From Patescibacteria group bacterium (lineage in GTDB: Bacteria > Patescibacteriota > Patescibacteriia > UBA9934): DNA of 43,882 nt. Position 1 is the stretch's first letter, and each line of letters begins with the position of its first letter. The stretch covers positions 853,338-897,219 of the forward strand of contig JBAZXR010000001.1 of the NCBI GenBank assembly GCA_041659765.1, written 5' to 3'. A model generated the notes under the pieces. That model searched no databases, had not been told where the DNA came from, and was given only the letters and a program-made list of their open reading frames with translations. Shown here piece by piece: positions 7,808-29,869 of the stretch. The position numbers were made by a program, and so were the translations under genes.

Positions 7808-8737
7808 ATGCCCAAGAACATTCTGGCTAAATACATTAAGGAGTTTCTAGAATATCTTGAGATTGAGCGCGGGCGCTCGGAGAAAACCATTAAGAACTAC
7901 CGTTTTTATTTGTTGAGGTTTTCGGAATGGGCTGGTTCGCCGAATCCATTGGAGATTACGGGAGAGATGGTTAGAAAATACCGATTACACCTGAACCGCG
8001 ATATTGCCGGTCGCGAGGAAGCAAAGCTCCAGAAAAACACCCAGAACTATCATCTAATTGCGCTTCGATCATTTTTGAAATATCTCGCCAAGCGTGACGT
8101 GCAGAGCATGGCGCCGGAGAAGATCGAGCTGGCCAAGCAAGGGACTCGCCATGTGAGTTTCCTTGAGGCGGATGAGTTTGAGCGCTTCCGTAAGGGCCCG
8201 ACGAATGATCCAACGATTGTTGGCTATCGTGATAAAGCTTTGCTTGAGTTACTTTTTTCCACGGGCATGCGTGTGTCTGAGGCGTCGACGCTCAAGATCG
8301 ACAACATCAATTTGAAACGTGACGAGTTCACAGTGCTTGGTAAAGGCAAGAAACATCGGGTCGTCTATCTTTCGGAGGATGCTCGTCGGGCAGTAAAGAC
8401 ATATCTCGAACATCGCAAGGACACTTCTCCGTACCTCTTTGTCCGCCACGACCGAGCCCGTCACTCGATGCCAACTGCGCATCCTCTTACTCCCCGCTCC
8501 GTGCAACGCATCGTCGACAGATACGCACGCGAGGCCGGCATCACCAAACGCGTCACACCCCACACGCTGCGTCACACTTACGCCACGGACCTTTTGCGTA
8601 ACGGGGCGGACATCCGCGCAGTTCAGTCGTTACTTGGCCACGAGTCGATCACAACGACGCAGGTGTATACGCACATTACAGACAAAGAACTGGGGCGTGT
8701 ATATAAGGAGTTTCATGATAAGAAAAAGAAAAGTTAG
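7808..8737 (+). CDS. tyrosine recombinase, XerC/XerD family
   Basis: 309 aa with a C-terminal catalytic region HTLRHTYATDLLRNGADIRAVQSLLGHESITTTQVYTH. Confidence 0.9.
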   Translation: MPKNILAKYIKEFLEYLEIERGRSEKTIKNYRFYLLRFSEWAGSPNPLEITGEMVRKYRLHLNRDIAGREEAKLQKNTQNYHLIALRSFLKYLAKRDVQSMAPEKIELAKQGTRHVSFLEADEFERFRKGPTNDPTIVGYRDKALLELLFSTGMRVSEASTLKIDNINLKRDEFTVLGKGKKHRVVYLSEDARRAVKTYLEHRKDTSPYLFVRHDRARHSMPTAHPLTPRSVQRIVDRYAREAGITKRVTPHTLRHTYATDLLRNGADIRAVQSLLGHESITTTQVYTHITDKELGRVYKEFHDKKKKS

Positions 8738-9616: not shown

Positions 9617-9692
9617 TGGGGTGGCTAACGGGAATTGAACCCGTACTAGAGGTACCACAAACCTCTGTGATAACCATTTCACCATAGCCACC
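9617..9692 (-). tRNA. tRNA-His (anticodon GTG), G-1 and CCA encoded
   Basis: Hand-folded cloverleaf: G-1, acceptor GTGGCTA/TAGCCAC, anticodon arm GAGGT-TTGTGGT-ACCTC, T arm ACGGG-TTCAATT-CCCGT. Confidence 0.9.
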
Positions 9693-9773
9693 ATAGCGCG
9701 GGCGTTGCCCGCCAAACCAATACGTTCAATCGGCATCGACAATATCATTTGAAGAACGCGGTTGTCCATCTGT

Positions 9774-9848
9774 TGGTGTCCCGGGTTGGAATCGAACCAA
9801 CATCAAGGCCTTAGAAGAGCCCTGCTCTATCCATTGAGCTACCAGGAC
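9774..9848 (-). tRNA. tRNA-Arg (anticodon TCT), CCA encoded
   Basis: Acceptor GTCCTGG/CCGGGAC, D arm GCTC-AATGGATA-GAGC, anticodon loop CTTCTAA, T arm GTTGG-TTCGATT-CCAAC. Confidence 0.88.
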
Positions 9849-17133: not shown

Positions 17134-18237
17134 TCACTCCAAGGCTGGTTTTTCGACCACTTCGATCTCAATGGCTTCGACGATATCTGTTTGAGTAATT
17201 TTTGCGACGTCCTTGGTGATCTTCTTCAGTTCCCCACTCGATAAGTTGAATTGATTGACCGTTGTCGCGAGGTTTTTCGCCACCTTGCCGTGATAGTCGT
17301 GATAGGCGCGGACATGTTTTCCTAACTCCCCTACTTGCTGTTGAATGATTTGTGCGTCTTCTTCGATCTTCAGTGCCCGCAGGCCTTGCAGTACCGTTTG
17401 CAGATAGGCGAAGAATGACGTTGGCGACACAATGATGACGCGATACTTGCTGGCAGCACGGGCGAGCAGGCTGTCGGTCTCGTCCGTGACCGCGCCGACT
17501 TTATTTACGAGAAGATCGTAGTAGACGGCTTCGTGCGGAATAAACATGAAGGCAAAGTCCATTGTGTTTTCTCCGGGGCGAATATATTTTGCCGTTTCTT
17601 GAATGCGTAATTTCAAATCGCCGACGAAAGTTTTTTCGAGTTTTTCGCGCTCAGTCGGATTTGTTTCAACACTCATCTTGTTGTAGTTCTCCAAACTAAA
17701 TTTGGCGTCGATCGGAATAATTTTTCCTTCAATAAAAATAGCCGCGTCAACAATTTCACCGTTTTGAAATTTATATTGCATCTGATAGTGATCCGGCGGC
17801 AATACATTCTTGAGCGCGGTTTCGAGGAAATATTCGCCGACGATGCCGCGTTGTTTGGGGTTTTTTAAAATATCCTGTAACTGTTTTAACTGCGCGGAGA
17901 AGTCTAGTACCTGCTTATTGGTAGCGTCGAGCGAGGCTAGCCGATTAGTAATGTCCTGGATGATTTTAGAAGTGTGCTCATGCTGCACCTGCTGTGACTT
18001 CTGTGAGTCTGACATGCCCTTGTAGACATTGTCATTTACGCGGGAGAGGTGCGTCTGCATCTCTTGGCGCGATTCAAACTGCGTGCGCTGGAGTTCTTCG
18101 CGCATTTCTTGGAGACGTTTAGCGAGATCATCAGTGCTAGATGAGCTCGGCGAGAGGGATTTACGGACCACAACGACCAAGAGGCCGAGAACGGCGAGCA
18201 GAAGTACGAGAATGAGAGGAAGAAGTACACTTTGCAT
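17134..18237 (-). CDS. rmuC: DNA recombination protein RmuC
   Basis: Start moved to the ATG at 18237 (MQSVLLPLILV, membrane anchor). The longer track ORF overlaps tRNA-Arg. Coiled coil followed by an RmuC-type C-terminal domain. Confidence 0.85.
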   Translation of the reverse strand: MQSVLLPLILVLLLAVLGLLVVVVRKSLSPSSSSTDDLAKRLQEMREELQRTQFESRQEMQTHLSRVNDNVYKGMSDSQKSQQVQHEHTSKIIQDITNRLASLDATNKQVLDFSAQLKQLQDILKNPKQRGIVGEYFLETALKNVLPPDHYQMQYKFQNGEIVDAAIFIEGKIIPIDAKFSLENYNKMSVETNPTEREKLEKTFVGDLKLRIQETAKYIRPGENTMDFAFMFIPHEAVYYDLLVNKVGAVTDETDSLLARAASKYRVIIVSPTSFFAYLQTVLQGLRALKIEEDAQIIQQQVGELGKHVRAYHDYHGKVAKNLATTVNQFNLSSGELKKITKDVAKITQTDIVEAIEIEVVEKPALE

Positions 18238-18345
18238 ATTGACCGTGTGAGTGTGTTCTCTTATACTTTTTATGCGAGCGAATAGTATAGCACGACGTAA
18301 ATGCGTTTTGCGACGCTTGTTGGTATATTCTGCTAAGGTTAGCCG

Positions 18346-18351
18346 TATAAT
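18346..18351 (+). promoter_or_regulatory. perfect TATAAT -10 hexamer 17 nt upstream of tRNA-Arg(CCT)
   Basis: No convincing -35 hexamer seen. Confidence 0.35.
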
Positions 18352-18368
18352 CTTGATATCAGGATTGT

Positions 18369-18444
18369 GCTCCCGTAGTTCAAATGGATAGAACAGGGGC
18401 GTCCTAAGCCTTAGATCGTGGTTCAATTCCGCGCGGGAGCACCA
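18369..18444 (+). tRNA. tRNA-Arg (anticodon CCT), CCA encoded
   Basis: Acceptor GCTCCCG/CGGGAGC, anticodon loop GTCCTAA, T arm GTGGT-TCAATTC-CGCGC region. Confidence 0.88.
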
Positions 18445-18573
18445 GTACACAAAACCCCCTAAAATACGCCCTGGCGTTGTCGCCGGCTACGTTTCTCCTC
18501 AACGTACCATTAAGTACGTTTCGTCGAAGCCTCGCCGGCTCCTAGCCAGGACCTATTTTAGAGGGTTTTGTAA
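18445..18573 (+). repeat. tRNA-3'-flanking inverted-repeat element, copy 1
   Basis: Starts at the base after CCA. It has 17-nt terminal inverted repeats, ACAAAACCCCCTAAAAT (18449-18465) and ATTTTAGAGGGTTTTGT (18555-18571), and a central hairpin AACGTAC-CATTAA-GTACGTT. Confidence 0.85.
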
Positions 18574-19193: not shown

Positions 19194-20114
19194 ATGAGAC
19201 ACTTAAAGTTTTTTAATTTGTGTTGCGCTCTGACGATAATTTGGCTAATATCAGCTACTTTTCATGCTGAGTCAAATATGTCCTCAAGCAATTATCAGAT
19301 TCAGTGGGACTCGATCGGACAGGGTGGCGAGAACACGAGCACTTCTGCTTCTTATAAGGTAAGGGATACATTTGGAACTATTCAGGGGGTATCGTCGTCG
19401 ACGTCATTCAGACAAGACACTGGGTTCCGGGCCGGTGTTTATGATCCGACGGTTTCATTTTCCGTTTTTTCGCAGGATACTTCCTCCCAGGTTGCAGCCA
19501 CCTCCCTGGTTGGCAATGTGGTGACTATTACTTCGGTAGTTGGCTATGCGGTTGATGATTACATCGCGGTAATTCAGGATCAGGGCACTTCACAGATTTC
19601 CGCGATAGGTCGAGTCACAGTGGTTGGCGGCTCAACGCTGACTATTGATGAACTCAAAGATGGTGGAGTTGCCCCGGTAATCGATGGATCTAGTGACTTT
19701 GTTTATAAATTAAGCGGCAGTTCATTGCCTTTTAACACTTTTTCTACCAGCGTAGTTAATACTGGCATTGTGGGCTGGGACGCGGCGGCTGATGTTTCGA
19801 GCGGGTACAGCGTCTTCCTTTTTGAAGATCAGAACCTGACTTCTGGCACGGATACCATTCCAGACATCTCCGACGGTTCAGTGACTGCTGGCGTTAATGA
19901 ATACGGGGCGCGATCGTCAGATACTTCACTCACTGGTTCAACGTTTGATACGACTGATTCACCAATTATCGGATCGTTCCAGGAGGTTGCGAGCAGAGCT
20001 GATAACTCTCTGAAGGCGCGGGATTTTTTGACGCTAAAAGTAGGCATTAGCGGTACTCAGCCTAATGGTACCTACACTCAAACGTTAACTTTCGTCTTTG
20101 TTGGTAACTACTAA
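19194..20114 (+). CDS. secreted Ser/Thr-rich hypothetical protein (306 aa)
   Basis: Signal peptide MRHLKFFNLCCALTIIWLISATFHA, and a C-terminal beta-strand-like GTYTQTLTFVFVGNY. Confidence 0.7.
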   Translation: MRHLKFFNLCCALTIIWLISATFHAESNMSSSNYQIQWDSIGQGGENTSTSASYKVRDTFGTIQGVSSSTSFRQDTGFRAGVYDPTVSFSVFSQDTSSQVAATSLVGNVVTITSVVGYAVDDYIAVIQDQGTSQISAIGRVTVVGGSTLTIDELKDGGVAPVIDGSSDFVYKLSGSSLPFNTFSTSVVNTGIVGWDAAADVSSGYSVFLFEDQNLTSGTDTIPDISDGSVTAGVNEYGARSSDTSLTGSTFDTTDSPIIGSFQEVASRADNSLKARDFLTLKVGISGTQPNGTYTQTLTFVFVGNY

Positions 20115-20115
20115 T

Positions 20116-20979
20116 ATGCGACTCTGCGGACTCGTTCTGGGTTTATTTCTATCTTTTGCGACGCCACTATTTGCGTTGGGCGCGACCGTTGACCCGAGTG
20201 CGAGTGATCTTACAGTTATGCCAGGTGAAACGGCGGTAGCGACGATTTCCGTAAAAAATGATGCAGATTGGTCAAAGAATTATGAGGTTTCTTTCGCCCA
20301 GGTGAAGTTTGGTACTACGGCAGAAGAGGTCTCGTTCACCGCGTTGTCTACGAGTTTAAAAGGGGCGTTGTTAGCTGCGCCGAAACTTTTTACTCTTGAA
20401 GCTCATGCTTCGCGAACGATCGATGTGTCTGTGCAGCTGCCGGTCGGTCTTGAGGCTCAGTCGCCGACGATCGCCATTTTGGTAACTGAGAAGGGTGACC
20501 AGGGACAGACGGGAGGCGTGCAATCGTCCGTAGCCTCGATGTTATTTTTGCATGTTCCAGGTAATTTGACGCGTTCCATGTCTCTGGATTCGTTTATTGC
20601 CGTGCCAACCTTTACTTGGGGGAGAAATACAATGATTTCCGGGTTATTTAGGAATGACGGAGAGGAAACAATAGTCCTGCCAAACGAGATCCGAGTTTTT
20701 GGTCCATTTGGCGGTGAGGTTGGCCGAGGTTTATTCTCGAGTGAACCTAAGCATTTGCCTCCAGGAACCACGCGCGGGGTGACGCTAACTTGGCCGGCGA
20801 GTGACGGATTTTCTAAGTTTTTGATAGGCTCATACCGTTTTGAGCTGTGGGATGGTGATCAACAGCTGGCCAAAACTAAAGCTACTTTTGTTCCGATTAC
20901 GGTGTTCGTAGTGCTTGGAGCCAGTTTTATTGTCATTTTTCTTGGTATAATTACTCTCGTGCGGCGTCGCACTAAATAA
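20116..20979 (+). CDS. cell-surface protein with signal peptide and C-terminal TM anchor (DUF916/DUF3324-like architecture)
   Basis: The ATG lies 1 nt after the upstream TAA. Signal peptide MRLCGLVLGLFLSFATPLFALGA, then two beta-rich halves, then C-terminal FVVLGASFIVIFLGIITLVRRRTK. Confidence 0.65.
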   Translation: MRLCGLVLGLFLSFATPLFALGATVDPSASDLTVMPGETAVATISVKNDADWSKNYEVSFAQVKFGTTAEEVSFTALSTSLKGALLAAPKLFTLEAHASRTIDVSVQLPVGLEAQSPTIAILVTEKGDQGQTGGVQSSVASMLFLHVPGNLTRSMSLDSFIAVPTFTWGRNTMISGLFRNDGEETIVLPNEIRVFGPFGGEVGRGLFSSEPKHLPPGTTRGVTLTWPASDGFSKFLIGSYRFELWDGDQQLAKTKATFVPITVFVVLGASFIVIFLGIITLVRRRTK

Positions 20980-20983
20980 CTTT

Positions 20984-23437
20984 GTGAGATTTTTTTTCAA
21001 GCGTGCTGCGGTGTTTTGTATTTTCACCCTCTTGCTGATGGGTGTATTTCCTGTTTTTCACACTTTTGCAGTTACTGATGTGGTGACTAGTTTGTCCGAC
21101 CAACCGAGCACGTTGGTTACGAGCGCTTTATCAAATCATTCGTTTTTATTCACTACCGCTGACAATTGGACTGATGGTTTTACTGTGACCTTGGTTTTCC
21201 CGGCCGGGTTTACGACTACCGCTATCATTGAGGATGACGTTGACGTTGCCGATGACGGGGTGGATTTGACCACCGCTGCTACTTGCGCCGGAACAGAGCA
21301 GATGTCTGCGGTCATGAGTGGCGGAACCCTCACTTTGACGGTCTGCACTGGTGATGGGGGAACGGTAGCCTTAGGCAGTGTGGTGACTGTTGAGATTGGG
21401 ACAAACGCGTCCGCGTCTGGCACTGGCTCTAATAAAATCACTAATCCTTCAAGCGCCGGTACCTATTTCGTAAATCTTGCAGGTACGTCTGGCAACCAGG
21501 GTTCTATCCCTTTACCTATTGTTAGTTCATTAAGCAGTGGCGTTTCCGGATCAGTTGGTTCATTCGTTCCACCGCCATCGGGCGGCGCGCCGCCATCACC
21601 TCCGCCTGAACCTCCGCCAGCACCTGCTCCGGAACCGGCTCCAGAACCAACTCCTGAGCCTGCGCCTACGCCAACTCCCGAGCCAGCACCAGCTCCCACT
21701 CCCGAGCCCGCGCCTGCACCAGCCCCTGCGCCATCACCGGCGCCAAGTCCTGCGCCGAGCGCGCCACCTGGAGGGGGTGGTGCTTTGCCAACTGATATTG
21801 ACGTGTCGGCTACGTTGTCAGCTGGCGGGATTCCGCTTGCCCTAGAAGGCGGCGCAGTTAGTCTTTTACCTGGCACGACTCCGGTTGTCAGGGTATCGGT
21901 TACTAACCCTGATGATGTTGGTTCAGTAACAGTGGTAATCGCAGACTCTACTTACATCTTGTCCCAGGTTGCGCCTGATACATATCAAGGCTTGATTCAG
22001 GCTCCCTCGGCGAATGACGTCTTGAACGTCATAGTGGCGAGGAAGAGCGGAGGTTCAAAAATCATTTCGATGGCCATTCAGATTGCGTCATACGGGCAGG
22101 TCTATGAAATTATTGATGGCTTACGACGACCAGTGGAGAACGTTATTGTGACGGCCTATACTGGGGGTCGAATACTTTGGAATGCTTCTGATTTTGGCGG
22201 GGTGAATCCAGAGCGGACTTCATTTTCCGGCAGTTTTGGTTGGTATGCGCCAAATGGTTCGTATGTCCTAGTGGCTGAGCGAGACGGGTATGAATCGGCG
22301 AGCGTGACAGTCGGGGTGAGTGATCACGTTTTATCTTCCTCTATTCAACTAACAAGATCTTCCGAGGTTATCGTACCGCCTGTTGTTCCGCCGGTCGTAC
22401 CCCCAATTATTGCCGCGCTTCCTCCGAGCGTTGGTCAGGCGGTGGTTTCGGCTAGCGCCGCTGTTGCCGTGGCTACTGAGGCAGTGGCGGCGGTGTTTGC
22501 CTCCCCGGAAGCGCAGGCTACGGCCACGGTGGCAGCCCCGGTAGCCGCGGCTGTGGCGGCCTCGTCAACGATTGTGCTGGCTTCGAGTTTTAATTTGGCA
22601 GCTTATCTTCAGTATTTAATTACTTCGCCGTTATTGCTTCTCAATAGACGCAAACGAAAAGCGTACGGCATGGTTTATAACGCGATGACCAAAATCCCGA
22701 TTGAGCTGGCGGTGGTACGACTTTATAGAGTTTCGGACAACCGACTCATAAAGTCAGTAGTCACCAACGCTGAAGGAAAATACTTTCTGTTCGTCCCTGA
22801 GCCGGGCGTATATACCTTGAAAGTAGCCAAAGGTGGCTTTGTTTTCCCGAGTGATTATTTGAAAGGCATCAAAGACGATGGGACGTTTCTTGACGTGTAC
22901 ACTTCTCAATTGATTACAGTCAACGAGCGCGACGCCACGATTGCGGCTAATATCCCAATGGATCCGTCGCAATCTAGCGAGCACCATGGTGAGATGCGTT
23001 TGCGAACCAAGCGGTTCCTGCGTTCATTGCAGAAAGTGGCGGCTCCAGCTGGTGTTGTGTTATCGGTTTTCGTTTTTCTAACTTTTCCTGGAGTATTTTC
23101 CGGCCTTGGATTGGTGGTACAGGTAATTGCACTCATGATTTCTATCCGACTCGCTTGGCCAAAGAAACCAAAAGGTTGGGGTCTGGTTGATGAAGCTACC
23201 GGTAAGGCGCCGTTGGGGAATGTTGTCGTTCGTCTCTTCGAACCGCGGTATAATAAGCTAGTCGAGTCTACGCTCACGGATAACCGTGGCCGATATTCTT
23301 TCCTTTTGGGTCCGAACGAGTACTACGTAAGCTACTCTAAGACGGGGTTTGCGGAAAAAATTGTTCGTCCCATTGACTATAGGGACAAGAAAGAGCCGAC
23401 ACCATTAACGGTGAAGGTGGCACTCGACAAAGCTTAG
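20984..23437 (+). CDS. large membrane-embedded surface protein with a proline-rich linker and three CarboxypepD_reg-like beta-sandwich modules
   Basis: GTG start and signal peptide. The modules are VIVTAYTGGR...GSYVLVAERDGYES, VVRLYRVSDNRLIKSVVTNAEGKYFLFVPEPGVYTLKVAKGGF and VVVRLFEPRYNKLVESTLTDNRGRYSFLLGPNEYYVSYSKTGF, interleaved with hydrophobic helices. Confidence 0.7.
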   Translation: MRFFFKRAAVFCIFTLLLMGVFPVFHTFAVTDVVTSLSDQPSTLVTSALSNHSFLFTTADNWTDGFTVTLVFPAGFTTTAIIEDDVDVADDGVDLTTAATCAGTEQMSAVMSGGTLTLTVCTGDGGTVALGSVVTVEIGTNASASGTGSNKITNPSSAGTYFVNLAGTSGNQGSIPLPIVSSLSSGVSGSVGSFVPPPSGGAPPSPPPEPPPAPAPEPAPEPTPEPAPTPTPEPAPAPTPEPAPAPAPAPSPAPSPAPSAPPGGGGALPTDIDVSATLSAGGIPLALEGGAVSLLPGTTPVVRVSVTNPDDVGSVTVVIADSTYILSQVAPDTYQGLIQAPSANDVLNVIVARKSGGSKIISMAIQIASYGQVYEIIDGLRRPVENVIVTAYTGGRILWNASDFGGVNPERTSFSGSFGWYAPNGSYVLVAERDGYESASVTVGVSDHVLSSSIQLTRSSEVIVPPVVPPVVPPIIAALPPSVGQAVVSASAAVAVATEAVAAVFASPEAQATATVAAPVAAAVAASSTIVLASSFNLAAYLQYLITSPLLLLNRRKRKAYGMVYNAMTKIPIELAVVRLYRVSDNRLIKSVVTNAEGKYFLFVPEPGVYTLKVAKGGFVFPSDYLKGIKDDGTFLDVYTSQLITVNERDATIAANIPMDPSQSSEHHGEMRLRTKRFLRSLQKVAAPAGVVLSVFVFLTFPGVFSGLGLVVQVIALMISIRLAWPKKPKGWGLVDEATGKAPLGNVVVRLFEPRYNKLVESTLTDNRGRYSFLLGPNEYYVSYSKTGFAEKIVRPIDYRDKKEPTPLTVKVALDKA
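21569..21782 (+). repeat. low-complexity (E)P(A/T/S)P tract, about 70 codons
   Basis: PPPSGGAPPSPPPEPPPAPAPEPAPEPTPEPAPTPTPEPAPAPTPEPAPAPAPAPSPAPSPAPSAPPGGGG. Confidence 0.9.
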
Positions 23438-23444
23438 GAGGTAC

Positions 23445-26400
23445 ATGAACCAACGTGCACACCATGGATTCCCGCAAGTGATTGCGAGGTTTCTCCTCGT
23501 GTCCGTTTTGTTCGGCAGCGCGGCGCTCTCCGCGCTTTTCGGCGTGTCTGTCCAGGCCGCAAGTGCTCCAAACATCATTAGTTATCAAGGAAGAGTACTG
23601 AATACGAACGGCGTTCCTGTTGCCTCCGCCTCCGCTACCATGGTCTTTGAAATTTATGACTCGCTCGCAGCCGGCACGTGTCTCTGGTCTAACTCGTCCG
23701 CTACCTGTGCAAGTGCAACCTCGCGAACCGTTACACTAACCGACGGCTTGTTCTCCGAGCCACTCGGCGACACGACCGTTGGAGTTCCATACGCGGCTAT
23801 TGCTGACACAGTTTTTGGCAGTAATGCTGGTACCTACCTGCAAGTCACGGTGAACGGCGAGACGCTCACTCCCCGCAAACAGATTGTGGCTGCTCCGTAT
23901 GCACTTAATGCTGACACGCTTGATGGCTTGGACTCGTCTGCCTTTACATCTCTCTTTACTGACGGCGGCACTTTTACATACCTAACTTCAGCCACAGACG
24001 ACCTTGTTATTGGCGGGGTTACGGTGCCGGCGGCCTCGCTCTTCTTTGATGCATCAGTCGCGGAACTTAATCTTGGAACGGAGGGCGCCCTGAACGGACT
24101 CGTACGGCTTTATAGTTCTGGTGCTGTTGTTGATGCGACAATTGGTACGAACGTGTCAGGTGATTTAGTTTTGACGACTCCTGGAATCATTTCTGTTGCG
24201 AGTAACATCACGAGTAGCGCAGACCTGGCTCTAAACGGCGGCGATCTTACTTCTACCTCTGCTGTCTTTAAGCTGGCTGACGCTGTCGGAAACTCGGCCA
24301 CTATTCAAATTGGTGGTGTCAGTACTGACCTTCTAAATACCGTGAACATTGCTACGGATTCTACGAGTGCCGATTTCATAGTTATTGGCAGCATAAACGC
24401 TGCCAGTACCGCTCAATTACGTGGTGCCATTACTACTCTGAACGGCACCTCGGCCATTAATCTGAATGACGCTACGGGCGCTAAGATCACGGACGTCGGC
24501 GGTGTTGACAATGACGGCGGAGATACGGTCCGCATCGCAACTGAAGGTACGTCGGCTGATGTTATTACCATTGGTAATAGCAATGCTTTGACCACATTAG
24601 GACTCACCGGTGGCGATGATTGGAGTGTCACGACCGCGGGACTGATTACTACGGCTAATGACGTGTTTATTAATGGAGGCGATTTGCAATCAACTTCCGC
24701 CACTTTTAACTTTTTGGATAACACTGGCGACGCGACAACGATTGATATTGGAGGCGTAACTACTGCTCTCAGCAATACCATTAACATCGCTACTAATGCC
24801 ACAGGTTCCGATACCATTAACATTGGTAATAATGGAGCGGCTACTTCACTGGTTCTTACGTCTCAGGCCTGGAGCATCACTGGCCCTGGTCTGATAACTA
24901 CGGGGGACGATCTAGCTGTTAATGGTGGTGACTTGACCTCTACTTCGGCTACCTTTAATTTTCTTGATGCGGCCAGTAGTTCCACAACGATTGATATTGG
25001 CGGCGTGACCACTTCGCTTAGTAATACGATCAATATCGCCACTAATGCCACCGGTTCCGATACCATTAACATTGGTAACAATGGAGCCGCTACTTCTTTG
25101 GTGCTGACGTCTCAAGCCTGGAGTATCACCGGTCCGGGTTTGATAACTACATCTGATGATGTGGCGATTGGCGGCGGAGACTTAACCTCCACCGCTGGAA
25201 CCTTTAACTTCTTAGATGCTGCCGCAAACTCGGCCGCCATAGATATTGGAGGGGTCACTACTGATATCGGAAATACCATTTATATTGCGATAAACTCAAC
25301 TACCGCGGATACGCTTAGTTTTGGAAATGCTAACGCCTCCACTGTATTCTATCTTGATGGTGGTGATGACTGGGCTATTAACGCTACGGGCGATGCGCAA
25401 TTTGAAAATGTTTTGATTGACATGACGAATACCGCTACCACGAACGGTGTCTGTCACTCTGGTGTAGATTCAGATACCACAGCGACAGTTCGGGAGATGG
25501 TTGTTTGTTCTGCAGCTCCAGACGACTACGCCGAGTGGTATGAAACAGACGGTTCTGCGGTTGCCGGTGATCTTGTAGCGACGACGTCAACTACTTTTAC
25601 GTACAATGCCAAGCAGAGCAACCCGTTTACCGGTGAGATTTTGCCTGGCACGATTAGTAAAACCTTGCCGGTACTCACGAAGGCGACATCGAGTTCGGTC
25701 GACGTATTCGGCATCATCTCTACTTCGCCAAACCAGGTGATTGGTAGCGATGTGAAGAATCAGGGCGCGCATCCTCAGCCGATTGGTCTAGTTGGCCGTG
25801 TTCCGCTTCATGTGACTAGCGAGAACGGCCCGATTGCTGCGGGTGATTATCTAACTGTGTCATCGACTCCCGGTTACGCTATGAAGGCCACTGCTCCTGG
25901 TCGAGTGATCGCTCGCGCACTGACAAACTTTAACGGCGTCGGCGTGACTACTATTACCGCGTTTATTGACAATTCTTGGTACGGCGGCGAAATGCTCGCA
26001 GCCGATGGCTCGGCCTTGGCACTGACCGGGGACCTTAAGCTTTCGTCGCTTGCTCAGGCAACGCCATCGAGCCAGGCTATAAACTCGCATGCGCTTTTAC
26101 TCACGGGTAGCGGTTGGGATGGCTCAAGTGCTCTAGACGTAACGATGGGTTTGCGAACTAAAGTAAATTCGCTCAGTAATTATCGCCTCGCTTTTGAAAA
26201 TAACCTTGGCGGCGAGATCGCGTCGATTACCAACTCCGGTGATGTGCTGGTGTCCGGCAAGTTGTATCCCTCTGACAGGGGTTTGACTCAAACCAACGCG
26301 TACATTTTCTATGATTCATCGGCTGGCGGGGGATACATGAAGACGAATGCTGCCGGTTGGAACGTGGGTTCGTACGACTTTGCTGAAATGTTCCCATCTG

Positions 26401-27506
26401 ACGACGAACTGACCGCTGGCGAGGTTGTTGTTTTCGCCGACCGTTCACAGGCGGTGAAGAAGTCAGGTTCGACGACTTATGATGATAAGCTCGTCGGTGT
26501 TGTTTCAACACGTCCAGGTTTCTTGGCCGGTGAATACAAAGCTGGTTCATACCCGATCGCCCTTTCAGGTCGAGTGCCAACGAATGTGTCGGACGAGAAC
26601 GGCGCTGTGGCTATCGGCGACCCGCTGACTACCTCCTCGACGCCTGGCGTAGCGATGAAGGCCACGAAAGCTGGTCCGATTCTTGGCTATGCCATGGAGC
26701 CGCTGCCTGGTGGAACCGGTAAGGTAGTCGCCTTTATTCGAGCTTCTTATTACTCAGGAAACGGAACTAACTCAGCACCGGATGTCAGTAACACGGTTAC
26801 CGGCTTGTCAACGGCCGGTAGCCTTGATCTCTCAGGCTCTTTGAATATGAACGGCGGCAATATTCTGTCAGTCGGTTCTATAGGGGGTATCGGCGGAGTT
26901 TGGAAGATCGCTGATAATGGAGATTTTACAACCGGAGGGGCATTGGTTAAGCAGGTTCGTTCATTTATGGGTGATCTAGTAGACACTTATCCTTCTACCG
27001 CAACGGAGCGAACGGTTGAGCTGTCGGGGACAAGTACATTGCAGAACGGCTTAGCTACAGTTACCTTCTCAGAGGAGGATCCGCATTTTAATCAGATCAT
27101 TTCTAACACTGCGGCTTATCGTGTACTAGTTACTCCGGCGGGCGCCACCGGACAGGTTTTTGTAACAGATCGTTCAAATGGAGGATTTATCATTCACGAT
27201 ACCGGCTCATCTACCGGAGTGATGGTTGACTGGCTCGTGATTGCCTACGAAAAAGATCATGAACCTCAAGTGGTGACTCCCGTTGTTGTACCTGAACCCA
27301 TTCCGGAGCCAATCGTGGCTGGCATAGTTGATCCTGTGCCGGCTGATCCTGTCGTAGTTGTAGATACAGTGCCAACTGAACCGATTCCCGTTGTCGACCC
27401 GGTACCAATCCAGGCGGTCATAGAGGTCGCGCCTGTTGAAACGCTTATTGATCCAGTGCCTGTGCCTGAGCCAACCTTGCCGACTGATCCTCTTCTGACA
27501 CCATAG
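23445..27506 (+). CDS. giant secreted fibre/adhesin-like protein (1353 aa) with phage tail-fibre-type modules
   Basis: GGAGG RBS and signal peptide. Five IGGV...IAT..T.AD.I.IG modules. Two DYAE-type modules, DDYAEWYETDG at 25521 and YDFAEMFPSDD at 26373. Pro/Val-rich C-terminal tail. Confidence 0.8.
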   Translation: MNQRAHHGFPQVIARFLLVSVLFGSAALSALFGVSVQAASAPNIISYQGRVLNTNGVPVASASATMVFEIYDSLAAGTCLWSNSSATCASATSRTVTLTDGLFSEPLGDTTVGVPYAAIADTVFGSNAGTYLQVTVNGETLTPRKQIVAAPYALNADTLDGLDSSAFTSLFTDGGTFTYLTSATDDLVIGGVTVPAASLFFDASVAELNLGTEGALNGLVRLYSSGAVVDATIGTNVSGDLVLTTPGIISVASNITSSADLALNGGDLTSTSAVFKLADAVGNSATIQIGGVSTDLLNTVNIATDSTSADFIVIGSINAASTAQLRGAITTLNGTSAINLNDATGAKITDVGGVDNDGGDTVRIATEGTSADVITIGNSNALTTLGLTGGDDWSVTTAGLITTANDVFINGGDLQSTSATFNFLDNTGDATTIDIGGVTTALSNTINIATNATGSDTINIGNNGAATSLVLTSQAWSITGPGLITTGDDLAVNGGDLTSTSATFNFLDAASSSTTIDIGGVTTSLSNTINIATNATGSDTINIGNNGAATSLVLTSQAWSITGPGLITTSDDVAIGGGDLTSTAGTFNFLDAAANSAAIDIGGVTTDIGNTIYIAINSTTADTLSFGNANASTVFYLDGGDDWAINATGDAQFENVLIDMTNTATTNGVCHSGVDSDTTATVREMVVCSAAPDDYAEWYETDGSAVAGDLVATTSTTFTYNAKQSNPFTGEILPGTISKTLPVLTKATSSSVDVFGIISTSPNQVIGSDVKNQGAHPQPIGLVGRVPLHVTSENGPIAAGDYLTVSSTPGYAMKATAPGRVIARALTNFNGVGVTTITAFIDNSWYGGEMLAADGSALALTGDLKLSSLAQATPSSQAINSHALLLTGSGWDGSSALDVTMGLRTKVNSLSNYRLAFENNLGGEIASITNSGDVLVSGKLYPSDRGLTQTNAYIFYDSSAGGGYMKTNAAGWNVGSYDFAEMFPSDDELTAGEVVVFADRSQAVKKSGSTTYDDKLVGVVSTRPGFLAGEYKAGSYPIALSGRVPTNVSDENGAVAIGDPLTTSSTPGVAMKATKAGPILGYAMEPLPGGTGKVVAFIRASYYSGNGTNSAPDVSNTVTGLSTAGSLDLSGSLNMNGGNILSVGSIGGIGGVWKIADNGDFTTGGALVKQVRSFMGDLVDTYPSTATERTVELSGTSTLQNGLATVTFSEEDPHFNQIISNTAAYRVLVTPAGATGQVFVTDRSNGGFIIHDTGSSTGVMVDWLVIAYEKDHEPQVVTPVVVPEPIPEPIVAGIVDPVPADPVVVVDTVPTEPIPVVDPVPIQAVIEVAPVETLIDPVPVPEPTLPTDPLLTP
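24230..25400 (+). repeat. in-frame tandem modules, period 249 nt (83 aa) for the three best units
   Basis: Landmarks recur at 24672/24921 and 24777/25026. The protein modules are IDIGGVTTALSNTINIATNATGSDTINIGNN, ...TTSLSNTINIATNATGSDTINIGNN and ...TTDIGNTIYIAINSTTADTLSFGNA. Confidence 0.85.
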
Positions 27507-27514
27507 AAATACAT

Positions 27515-29869
27515 ATGTCTCACAAAATAGGCGTCTTTTTACTGAAACTTTCTCGCATTCTCTGGTGCTCTGCAGCCATTTTGGTGCCTCTTGTCATGTT
27601 CCCGTGGACGACTGATCATTTTGATTTTAACAAAGCCTTCGTACTTGTCATCCTGGGCACCGGCATTGCCGCATCTTCTTTTTTTGGCATGGCGCTGACT
27701 AAGTCGTTGCGAGTGAAGATGCATCCGGTTCTACTTCTGCCCGCAATCTTTTTACTCGTTACCGCACTGTCGAGCGTTTTTTCTCTTGATCAGGCCACGA
27801 GTTTTATCGGCGAAGGGGGACAAGAACATACGAGTTTGTTGATGGGTATTTTTCTTTATATTTTATTACTTTTAGGCGCCATTTTTCTTGAGGATGAAGG
27901 ATTTCAGAAGAGTCTGTCTTCTGCGTTGTTGGTTGGATCGGCCATCACTGGCGCGCTGACTCTGGTGACTTTTGTGGGCATCTCCATTCCGCCGTTCCAA
28001 AATACGGTCGGCGTGCCAACGGCCTTCGCTGTTTACATGATAACCATGACAATGTTTGGAACGTGCGTATTTCTAACGGAGATGGGACAAGAAACAAAAG
28101 CTAAGTCATGGGCGATGAAAATTAGTTTCGCCTTGACGGCCTTAGCGACTGCTTTGACTTTGATCGCTTTCGACTCCATATTATTGTGGGCTCTGGTGAT
28201 CGTTTCAACCTTGGCGCTCTTCACCTTTGTCTTTGCTCGTCCCGAACTTCTCCAGAAGACAGCAATTTTAGCGGTTCCAGGACTATTCTTGTCTTTGGCC
28301 ATCGTTTTTATCTTTGTTCAGTCGCCACTTCACGGCAAGTTCCCACTTGAGGTCAGCCTTAACCAGAACTCGTCTTTGACCGTTGTCAGACTTACTCTAG
28401 CTGCACATCCGATTATCGGTTCTGGTCCTGGAACCTTTGGTATTGATTTTAATCGATTTGCACCGCCCGAACTGAACTCGAGTTTATTTTGGGATACGCG
28501 TTTTAGTTCAGGCATGAGCGAATTCTTTACTCTACTCGCAACACACGGTGTCCTCGGCTTTATTGCTTTGTTACTCTTTCCTTTGGCGCTTGGCTTGTTT
28601 GCCTTCAGAACGGTCGTGTCAACTCGCACCGACTGGCATCGGGTGCTCCCGCCGCTTGTCGGGGGAATCACTTTACTCGGCGCTTTCTTCTTATTTGCTT
28701 ACACAGTTACCACGGTATTTATTTTGATGATTTTCGCTGCCTGGATCGCTGCCATAACTTTGCCGCCGAGCCGAGACGTCTCACATGCCCATTCGCCTCG
28801 CTTGGCCTTGGTGTCGAGTTTTGGTGTTTTGCTTGGCAGTGTTGGCATTTTGGTCGCGGTATTCGTTTCACTTACCCGTTACGGTGCAGAGATAGCTTTT
28901 GCTAAAGCAGTTGCCAGAGATAGGGAGGGCGGTGAGGCCATGGAGATCATAAAGCTGCTCAATACGGCCGCTACATTAAATGGCCGTAATGACGGGTATT
29001 ATAGAAATTTGTCCAACGCACTGTTAATTCAAACTTCCAAAGTAGCCGCTGATACTAAGGCTGATCCAGCAGTTATTCAGAGTTATCTCGCCTCAAGCGT
29101 GAATGCTGCCGTCATGGCTGCGAATATTGGGCCAAACGATGTAGCTAACTTCCAGATGCTTTGCACTGTTTACCGAGAATTTTCGTCAGTGGTGAAAGAT
29201 GCTAATAATCATGCTATTTCTACCTGCGAAAAAGCCGTCACTCTAGCTCCTAACAATCCTAAATATCTAGTAGACGTGGCTCGCACGTACATAGTTCGCG
29301 TAGATTTATTGAACGCGTTGGCTAACGGCGATGATAAGGAGGTTGCCAAGACAGCTAAAGACGCGCAGGCCGAGGCATTGACTAAGGCTGGAGATGCACT
29401 CTCTAAGGCCATCGAGTTAAAGGGTGATTACGCGTCGGCTCGTTACTACTCAGCTTTTGTTGAGGAGCGAAAGGGCAACCTGGCTGCCGCTATCCAAAGC
29501 ATGGAGGTAGCCCGCGCTCTTAACCAGAAGGATGTTGGGGTTAGTATTCAACTATCGCTTTTGTACTTGCGCCAGGGCAAAAATGATTTAGCCGAGAAAG
29601 AACTATTGCGCGCATTAGATCTTGATCCCAAGAATGATAACCTAAAGTGGTATCTCTCGGTGGCCTATGAGGCTAAAGGAGAAAAAGAGAAGGCAATTAA
29701 TCTTTTACAGGATCTCGTAAAGACTAACCCGGATAACGAGACGGTTAAAACCAGACTTGAAAAACTTCAGAAGAACGAGCCGGCACCAAAACCCGTGATA
29801 CCAGAACCGATCGAACCAACGCTTCCACCAGCGGAAAGCACGGCACCGTCAGCCCCAGTGACTCCGTAA
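27515..29869 (+). CDS. O-antigen ligase/polymerase-like polytopic membrane protein fused to C-terminal TPR repeats
   Basis: About 450 aa of TM helices with IGSGPGTFG in a loop. TPR-like repeats follow (ARYYSAFVEERKGNLAAAIQSMEVARALN, VSIQLSLLYLRQGKNDLAEKELLRALDLDP). Confidence 0.75.
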   Translation: MSHKIGVFLLKLSRILWCSAAILVPLVMFPWTTDHFDFNKAFVLVILGTGIAASSFFGMALTKSLRVKMHPVLLLPAIFLLVTALSSVFSLDQATSFIGEGGQEHTSLLMGIFLYILLLLGAIFLEDEGFQKSLSSALLVGSAITGALTLVTFVGISIPPFQNTVGVPTAFAVYMITMTMFGTCVFLTEMGQETKAKSWAMKISFALTALATALTLIAFDSILLWALVIVSTLALFTFVFARPELLQKTAILAVPGLFLSLAIVFIFVQSPLHGKFPLEVSLNQNSSLTVVRLTLAAHPIIGSGPGTFGIDFNRFAPPELNSSLFWDTRFSSGMSEFFTLLATHGVLGFIALLLFPLALGLFAFRTVVSTRTDWHRVLPPLVGGITLLGAFFLFAYTVTTVFILMIFAAWIAAITLPPSRDVSHAHSPRLALVSSFGVLLGSVGILVAVFVSLTRYGAEIAFAKAVARDREGGEAMEIIKLLNTAATLNGRNDGYYRNLSNALLIQTSKVAADTKADPAVIQSYLASSVNAAVMAANIGPNDVANFQMLCTVYREFSSVVKDANNHAISTCEKAVTLAPNNPKYLVDVARTYIVRVDLLNALANGDDKEVAKTAKDAQAEALTKAGDALSKAIELKGDYASARYYSAFVEERKGNLAAAIQSMEVARALNQKDVGVSIQLSLLYLRQGKNDLAEKELLRALDLDPKNDNLKWYLSVAYEAKGEKEKAINLLQDLVKTNPDNETVKTRLEKLQKNEPAPKPVIPEPIEPTLPPAESTAPSAPVTP

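Follow-up and report, generated by a model that had tools for sequence, protein, structure and literature searches.

Why should the chromosome of a patescibacterium encode an exported fibre protein that carries, twice over and in series, a domain resembling the self-cleaving chaperone of a phage appendage protein, and what would such an arrangement do at the cell surface? The gene in question lies in a 43,882-nt stretch of the Patescibacteria group bacterium assembly GCA_041659765.1 (contig JBAZXR010000001.1, 897 kb long; hereafter the window, to which all nucleotide positions refer), where a single intact plus-strand open reading frame (ORF) contains both modules (Table 1). Profile and structural comparisons make it very probable that both modules are homologous to the D4 domain of the phi29 protein gp12, the type member of the G2 intramolecular chaperones. 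Little has been established about the way in which Patescibacteria (candidate phyla radiation, CPR) find and hold their hosts, and the only structures tied to host attachment are type IV pili and, since 2026, Pam pili.

The first-pass annotation of this DNA had proposed two modules of the same layout, and all the peptides that it quoted occur exactly in the ORF. In module 1 these include DDYAEWYETDG at amino acids (aa) 693-703 (nt 25521-25553) and TPGYAMKAT at aa 808-816, and in module 2 YDFAEMFPSDD at aa 977-987 (nt 26373-26405) and TPGVAMKAT at aa 1066-1074, with QIVAAPYALNADTLDGLDSSAF at aa 146-167 towards the N-terminus and the string YRVLVTP...VDWLVIAYEKD at aa 1225-1271 towards the C-terminus. 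BLASTP aligned the two modules with 42% identity over 107 aa (E=5e-20), and over 147 aligned positions of a 155-position profile the identity was 34%, such that on these alignments the modules are homologous well beyond chance. A six-frame translation of the window contained no module copies beyond these two. The span originally annotated begins at the residue just before the motif Asp of module 1, and its end coordinate of 26710 cuts approximately 25 residues off module 2.

The relationship of the modules to known chaperones is hidden from direct searches with the full-length protein, the signal appearing only with isolated modules and family profiles. Scanning the whole protein against Pfam, the check that the first-pass annotation had itself named, returned no family at E<=1, and searches of PHROGs and, with phmmer, of PDB sequences returned only noise. 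Module 1 alone had no Pfam match, while module 2 alone matched Peptidase_G2 (PF11962) with 15.4 bits (E=0.013) against a gathering threshold of 25 bits. Peptidase_S74 (PF13884), recognised by its SDxxxK motif, was also considered and rejected, being matched in none of the Pfam scans including those of isolated segments at E<=10.

A different picture was obtained with a family profile built from 25 diverse module copies of homologues. PF11962 was matched by 17 of these 25 modules with a best E-value of 3.1e-9, and a precomputed PF11962 assignment is present on 16 of the 120 homologues listed. Against PDB the profile matched phi29 gp12 (6qz9, E=1.8e-6; 3gqh, E=1.9e-6; 3suc, E=5.4e-5) as well as 28nb, described as the 'chaperone domain D4' of another tailspike (E=1.5e-4), and HHalign aligned it with gp12 residues 676-854 at 95.6% probability (E=1.2e-8). 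The predicted fold is in keeping with this. In an AlphaFold2 model covering aa 667-1275 the predicted local distance difference test (pLDDT) was approximately 80-94 across most of both modules (approximately 77-94 for module 1), and a Foldseek search with this model returned the 'pre-mature' gp12 entry 3suc (probability 1.00, E=1.3e-2) and, in BFVD, 175-aa models of a 'preneck appendage protein' (E~1e-9, target-normalised template modelling score 0.63-0.66, root mean square deviation (rmsd) 2.6-6.8 Å). The resemblance to a G2 intramolecular chaperone suggested in the first-pass annotation thus stands, at the level of the profile and with agreement from the fold.

Alignment with gp12 also places the conserved motif. 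The gp12 protein encoded by the phi29 genome is 854 aa long with DFAE at residues 692-695, and the D-[YFLV]-A-E of the modules aligns on this DFAE, which is residue 1 of the cleaved C-terminal fragment in 3gqh; the pre-mature entry 3suc reads DFAQ at the same position. The scissile bond would therefore lie directly before the motif Asp, and the motif Glu would correspond to E695. All of 120 close homologues keep the D, A and E of the motif in module 1, the residue before the Asp being Ala in 81, Ser in 25, Gly in seven and Asp, as here, in only two. The YDFAE of module 2 is kept in 104 of these 120, with the Asp replaced in 12 and the Glu in two, and in a broader set D-x-A-E is intact in 224 of 233 first modules and 214 of 233 last modules. 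Judged from these alignments module 2 is the more conserved domain overall, with a motif that is dispensable in a minority of proteins. Catalytic activity of module 1 is argued chiefly from the absolute conservation of its three motif residues in a domain that otherwise averages approximately 39% identity.

Compared with the gp12 D4 'autochaperone' (MEROPS G2), the modules belong to the same domain family by profile and fold, carry D-x-A-E at the N-terminal edge of the domain in register with the residues right after the S691/D692 cleavage site, and follow a beta-rich fibre or spike, which is trimeric in gp12 and predicted to be so here. The differences are equally clear. There are two copies per chain rather than one, the domain is internal rather than C-terminal, the approximately 45-aa insertion of gp12 between the GV.S and GL.GQ strands is absent, and the residue before the scissile bond is Asp or Tyr instead of Ser. 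Moreover the patescibacterial protein is a cellular, Sec-exported protein for which ATP-driven release is unlikely, and its similarity is too low for a Pfam assignment from this sequence alone. S74 chaperones (K1F endosialidase, T5 pb1 and the ICA domain of MyRF) are functionally comparable in that a C-terminal or internal domain brings about the trimerisation of a beta-helical fibre before cutting itself off, but they are unrelated in fold and chemistry (a Ser-Lys dyad) and have no sequence or profile match here.

The remainder of the protein has a defined architecture. A leader equivalent to its predicted signal peptide is present in all homologues, followed by a conserved AASAPNI.SYQGR.LN.NG.PV. 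The N-terminal domain is probably related to that of the mosaic adhesive trimer (MAT) fibres with which Bdellovibrio recognises its prey, NF053851 (Bdello_MAT_N) being matched by 17 of 17 family N-domains with a best E-value of 5.8e-11 and 42 bits, which is below the curated cutoff of 60. A profile of the N-domain had no match in PDB, which agrees with the absence of PDB homologues of the MAT N-domain stated in the literature. MATs consist of a signal peptide, a beta-rich domain that is conserved and approximately 130 aa long and a variable fibre, with 13 of 21 carrying a C-terminal self-cleaving S74 chaperone, and it is presumed that their N-domain lies next to the cell (Caulton et al., 2024, PMC10769870). 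The parallel with the S74 subgroup of Bdellovibrio bacteriovorus MATs, such as Bd3182, extends to a chromosomal, signal peptide-bearing fibre in a bacterium that lives on other bacteria, a probably homologous N-domain directly after the signal peptide, a variable mosaic shaft and a phage-type intramolecular chaperone, here only predicted to cut itself, towards the C-terminus. It differs in that the chaperone is of the G2 type with no SDxxxK motif and no PF13884 match, is duplicated within a conserved cassette of approximately 670 aa, and is encoded in a monoderm-like patescibacterium, in a gene cassette that includes a Pam-pilin-like gene.

Between the N-domain and module 1 lies a shaft for which at least three sequence types are found among homologues and which ranges across the family from a few hundred to thousands of residues. 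Here aa 180-690 are covered by 25-48 of 119 homologues, compared with 95 to 109 at the two ends of the protein. Within the shaft a tandem duplication of 249 bp (83 aa; nt 24735-25223) was found by Tandem Repeats Finder (period 249, 2.0 copies, 79% matches), which is consistent with length variation through gain and loss of repeats.

The C-terminal block had been likened in the first-pass annotation to phage tail fibres, and a tailspike-type domain was indeed identified. A profile of this domain matched the tailspike of cyanophage Pam1 at its C-terminal end (7eea, residues 598-661) with an E-value of 0.0039, PF24146 (K1-lyase_C) was found in 18 of 32 members, and a separate AlphaFold2 model of the domain (pLDDT 92.5) retrieved 7eea (E=3e-4) and, after it, depolymerases of phages and fibres of R-pyocins, with H-type lectins matching weakly. 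Like the C-terminal ends of podophage tailspikes, represented by Pam1 and the Klebsiella phage K1 lyase, aa ~1194-1265 resemble the last ~65 residues of Pam1 (26-29% identity, rmsd 2.7 Å). Unlike in those proteins, it is a chaperone module and not a catalytic beta-helix that precedes the domain, and an acidic tail of approximately 80 aa comes after it. No transmembrane helix and no LPXTG motif was found in the tail. A P-[EVI]-[VI]-A-G motif (here EPIVAGIVD, aa ~1286-1294, nt 27300-27325) lies ~15-50 residues into the tail in 23 of 208 tails as opposed to two of 208 after shuffling; it could be a processing or recognition site, and as a family-wide sorting signal it was rejected, since it is confined to those 23 tails, mostly from the closest relatives.

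This architecture is that of a family. Searching with the whole protein identified 217 homologues at E<=1e-5, those listed being 1078-2359 aa long and all the named ones among them belonging to Patescibacteria or Ca. Uhrbacteria. All 120 of the listed relatives analysed have exactly two modules, 63-112 aa apart and followed by 210-327 aa. An exhaustive search with the module profile of 1.84 billion representative sequences clustered at 50% identity returned 30,041 clusters at E<=1e-3, 24,137 at E<=1e-10 and 3,041 at E<=1e-30, and each of the best 150 matches contained at least two matched stretches, in proteins of up to 5,476 aa. Likewise, two modules or more were present in every one of the 233 relatives examined, of which 180 have the full layout of N-domain, two modules and C-domain. 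Mean identity is 39% between first modules, 58% between second modules and 35% between first and second modules, and each module has its closest relative among those of its own position (458/458), indicating that the duplication is older than the radiation of the family and that the two copies have been kept as separate lineages. The two-module cassette is encoded at no fewer than 482 loci in GTDB species-representative genomes of Uhrbacteria/Patescibacteria.

Four of the 233 relatives have three modules: P0207 (5366 aa), P0173 (3772 aa), P0220 (4272 aa) and P0224 (1543 aa). In P0207 the modules lie at residues 1880, 4216 and 4929, and over 3,000 residues separate the first (aa ~1880-2030) from the C-terminus. 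The three-module relatives, and the distance of this module from the C-terminus, suggest that giant precursors can use modules as separators within the chain. In one Uhrbacteria genome two paralogous two-module cassettes lie approximately 20 kb apart (JACPHX010000016.1, 39174-47036 (L012) and 59085-66956 (L015)). In addition, 27 of 80 loci with the cassette (L006, L009, L010, L018, L020, L028 and others) come from GTDB-representative metagenome-assembled genomes titled 'uncultured Gammaproteobacteria bacterium'. One of these, CAYVLY010000001.1 (709 kb), shares the synteny of the window, from which these titles look like mislabels.

The explanation that we favour, albeit with little more than even confidence, is that the ORF product is the exported precursor of a trimeric cell-surface fibre that is matured by its G2-type chaperones, at least module 1 being self-cleaving. 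The analysis establishes homology, the alignment and conservation of the motif, the fold, the export signal, the architecture of the family and the synteny of the locus, while trimerisation, the two cuts, what becomes of the fragments and a part in attachment are inferred. The precursor would be that of an Uhrbacteria-like patescibacterium and have a MAT-like layout, with an N-domain (~130 aa) presumed to lie on the surface of the cell and, at the C-terminus, a conserved stretch of ~670 aa comprising two anciently duplicated and diverged D4-type chaperones, the ~110-aa beta domain between them, the tailspike-type beta-sandwich and the acidic tail. After export, where cytoplasmic chaperones are unavailable, each module would nucleate the trimerisation and folding of the segment ahead of it, and each would then hydrolyse the bond before its Asp (D693/D694 and Y977/D978) by means of the Asp/Glu pair of D-x-A-E, as gp12 does. 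Cleavage at module 1 would free the mature fibre (aa ~40-693), exposing its distal end, with cleavage at module 2 splitting the remainder into aa 694-977 and aa 978-1353.

Several points weigh against this explanation. Cleavage is deduced from sequence and fold, and the modules of this particular protein stay below the Pfam cutoff, their direct scores being weak. The residue before the scissile bond, Ser in gp12, is Asp in module 1, where it is rare in the family, and Tyr in module 2, and approximately 8% of last modules lack the Asp or the Glu. Neither module is terminal, a further 660 aa coming after the predicted cut of module 1 and a further 376 aa after that of module 2, as opposed to the extreme C-terminal position of the gp12 domain, and this downstream part includes a domain that tailspikes and pyocin fibres keep at their distal end, which would be odd if everything after module 1 were discarded. 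There is, in addition, a likeness between the C-terminal half of the module and the non-catalytic cement/decoration proteins of phage capsids, many of which are listed by Foldseek, and PF09956 (Phage_cement_2) is touched by 11 of the 25 family modules. Finally, the release of the gp12 chaperone is reportedly ATP-dependent, and ATP is not expected outside the cell.

The cement-like resemblance, the distal character of the C-domain and the loss of the module 2 Asp or Glu in some proteins would all fit a different reading, in which the modules are retained trimerisation knobs of the G2/cement fold that do not cut, or of which only module 1 cuts, such that the mature fibre keeps its C-terminal cassette and the lectin-like C-domain serves as the functional distal tip. 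The high conservation of the whole cassette, as for a functional part rather than a discarded pro-region, points the same way. Set against it are the invariance of D, A and E in all 120 copies of module 1 while identity elsewhere is approximately 39%, which is hard to explain without chemistry at that position, and the residue-for-residue placement of the motif on the gp12 cleavage site. We regard this reading as possible but doubtful.

The internal position of both modules, and the relatives with three modules and with a module thousands of residues from the C-terminus, have also to be set beside the precedent of MyRF, in which a self-cleaving chaperone domain of the S74 type is internal (PMC8326128). 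By analogy the C-domain and tail would remain cell-bound, with self-cleavage shedding an N-terminal trimer, or several trimeric pieces in the manner of a polyprotein. Such a release switch is improbable, given a tail with neither a transmembrane helix nor a sorting motif and given that the likeness to the MAT domain presumed to lie next to the cell belongs to the N-domain, and it would presuppose that the C-domain binds the envelope of the producing cell.

That the gene is simply a phage tail-fibre gene, from a prophage, a tailocin or a recent phage insertion, is suggested by the fact that for every identifiable domain outside the shaft except the N-terminal one the best characterised relatives are in phages, and by the tyrosine recombinase and tRNA genes approximately 14 kb upstream. 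The genomic context indicates otherwise. The absence of flanking phage genes reported in the first-pass annotation was borne out, no capsid, terminase, portal, tape-measure or baseplate gene being present among the window ORFs scanned against Pfam, and the cassette occupies a fixed syntenic position in three other genomes, where the same five genes lie between rmuC and ychF (at 5787-17302 in L001 and 5708-16528 in L002, for example). The window is otherwise of housekeeping character (PNPase, an XerC/D-type recombinase, PolA, RmuC, YchF, a methyltransferase, an aminoacyl-tRNA synthetase, FtsK, RecA and four tRNAs), its GC content is even with the fibre locus matching its surroundings, and the fibre has a Sec signal peptide. 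No two-module match was obtained by tblastn of the cassette against 50,697 phage records, which yielded only weak single-module matches in PA5oct-like jumbo phages (33% over ~120 aa), nor was there any match in IMG/VR, where the scan consisted of two exact peptide patterns that divergent viral relatives could escape. A prophage or tailocin was accordingly rejected on context and synteny, and a phage origin of this kind is very improbable.

Finally, that the DYAE/DFAE likeness reflects chance or composition in a low-complexity Ser/Thr/Gly-rich protein, as the empty full-length hmmscan, PHROGs and PDB phmmer searches might imply, is refuted by the match between the modules, the gp12 profile and HHalign results, the independent agreement of the fold and the 24,137 clusters at E<=1e-10, and can be set aside as next to impossible.

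Table 1. Features of the fibre gene and its cassette; nucleotide positions are those of the window.
Feature	Position	Strand	Basis or remark
Cassette gene 1, secreted, 306 aa, distant relative of CPR Pam pilins	19194..20114	+	NF058579, NF058581
Cassette gene 2, 293 aa, signal peptide, C-terminal transmembrane anchor and RRRTK tail	20098..20979	+	Transmembrane/signal prediction
Cassette gene 3, 817-aa envelope protein, CarboxypepD_reg domains, transmembrane segments	20984..23437	+	Orthologues in same position
Giant ORF, predicted fibre precursor, 1353 aa	23445..27506	+	AGGAGG ribosome-binding site 7 nt 5' of ATG
Predicted Sec-type signal peptide, aa 1-~39, hydrophobic core then VQA/AS	23445..23561	+	Hydropathy segment aa 9-37; predicted cleavage position
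N-terminal beta-rich domain, aa ~40-170	23562..23954	+	NF053851 Bdello_MAT_N; present in ~95/119 homologues
Variable repetitive Ser/Thr/Gly-rich shaft, aa ~180-682	23982..25490	+	Covered by 25-48 of 119 homologues
Module 1, G2-type (phi29 gp12 D4-like) putative intramolecular chaperone domain, aa 683-859	25491..26021	+	Hidden Markov model envelope; profile and fold links to gp12
Predicted module 1 cleavage site, D693/D694-Y-A-E697 (cut between D693 and D694)	25521..25535	+	Alignment with gp12 D692-E695
Inter-module beta domain, aa 862-975 (~110 aa)	26028..26369	+	Conserved in 109/119 homologues; AlphaFold2 beta strands, pLDDT ~65-88; assigned to no family
Module 2, second putative G2-type domain, aa 964-1114	26334..26786	+	Hidden Markov model envelope; PF11962 E=0.013 alone; more conserved than module 1
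Predicted module 2 cleavage site, Y977/D978-F-A-E981 (cut between Y977 and D978)	26373..26387	+	Alignment with gp12 D692-E695
C-terminal beta-sandwich domain, aa 1140-1275 (tailspike-type core aa ~1194-1265)	26862..27269	+	Profile and fold
Acidic Pro/Val/Thr-rich low-complexity tail, aa 1276-1353	27270..27503	+	Family median tail length 98 aa
Cassette gene 5, 784 aa, 13 predicted transmembrane segments and C-terminal TPR repeats	27515..29869	+	Orthologues in same position

Five plus-strand genes (19194-29869), of which the fibre gene is number four, are packed tightly together with gaps of -17, 4, 7 and 8 nt (Table 1). The product of gene 1 matched NF058579 (CPR_pilus_PamT; E=9.2e-11, 41.6 bits, cutoff 240) and NF058581 (Pam_pilin_C; E=1.9e-5, 24.8 bits, cutoff 55), a signal that was reproduced in two orthologues. 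With both scores far below the cutoffs the sequence points to no more than a distant relatedness to Pam pilins. Gene 2 had no significant family match and no PDB match, and genes 1 and 2 together with the transmembrane part of gene 5 gave nothing significant against PDB sequences; the membrane part of gene 5, a gene that always adjoins the fibre gene in the syntenic loci, was also without a match in Pfam or NCBIfam. The product of gene 3 has a Pro-rich linker of ~70 aa (PAPEPTPEP...), CarboxypepD_reg/SdrD_B-like beta-sandwich domains and several mid-protein transmembrane segments, a topology that is unusual for a surface protein.

It has recently been reported that a 'tail fibre-like protein' co-localises with pam (CPR pilus) operons across CPR, the Pam systems described being mainly those of Saccharimonadia and Microgenomatia and including the membrane-anchored, PapD/FimC-like chaperones PamC/D (Troman et al., 2026, bioRxiv 10.64898/2026.03.03.709456). 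The layout of gene 2 is the same as that of PamC/D, by analogy of architecture. Comparison of the fibre with the pam-adjacent protein is by description only, that protein occupying one sentence without domain analysis, and in comparison with Pam operons gene 1 is only a distant PamT relative. As such the cassette may represent a Pam-like pilus locus in Uhrbacteria, outside the classes in which Pam pili have been reported.

Two further observations concern the neighbouring genes. The XerC/D-type tyrosine recombinase (7808-8737; Phage_integrase family with a SAM-like N-domain) lies within approximately 1 kb of tRNA-His and tRNA-Arg (9617-9848) and is probably the chromosomal dimer-resolution recombinase, because no other mobile-element genes were seen. 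The listed RmuC ORF (17134-18450, minus strand, 438 aa, GTG start) overlaps a tRNA-Arg on the plus strand (18369-18444), and since RmuC orthologues are 367-372 aa long its true start is probably ~65 codons downstream.

In the searchable literature, outside of which most subscription journals lie, no description was found of G2 modules in CPR proteins or of G2 modules in tandem. What is encoded here is a MAT-like fibre with duplicated G2 chaperones instead of a single S74 chaperone, in another phylum and within a Pam-pilin-like cassette, representing an apparently undescribed and very large family of giant exported fibres. The layout is a good candidate for how Patescibacteria build surface attachment fibres. 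A single characterised phage protein had represented the G2 autochaperone, whose range now takes in cellular proteins and copies in tandem. The family also provides a handle for annotating thousands of 'hypothetical proteins', and through the predicted cuts at D693/D694 and Y977/D978 it offers concrete and cheap tests. A bolder proposal, speculative and rather unlikely to hold in full, is that tandem or triple G2 modules are self-cleaving separators by which one Sec-exported polypeptide would give two or three trimeric products outside the cell, with need of neither ATP nor cytoplasmic chaperones, these products being a fibre for host recognition and a C-terminal piece with a lectin tip, which would work together with a Pam-like pilus in the attachment of the episymbiont. 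Were this so, it would constitute an extracellular 'polyprotein' maturation route for bacterial surface fibres, and the attachment hardware of CPR episymbionts and of predatory Bdellovibrio would share ancestry.

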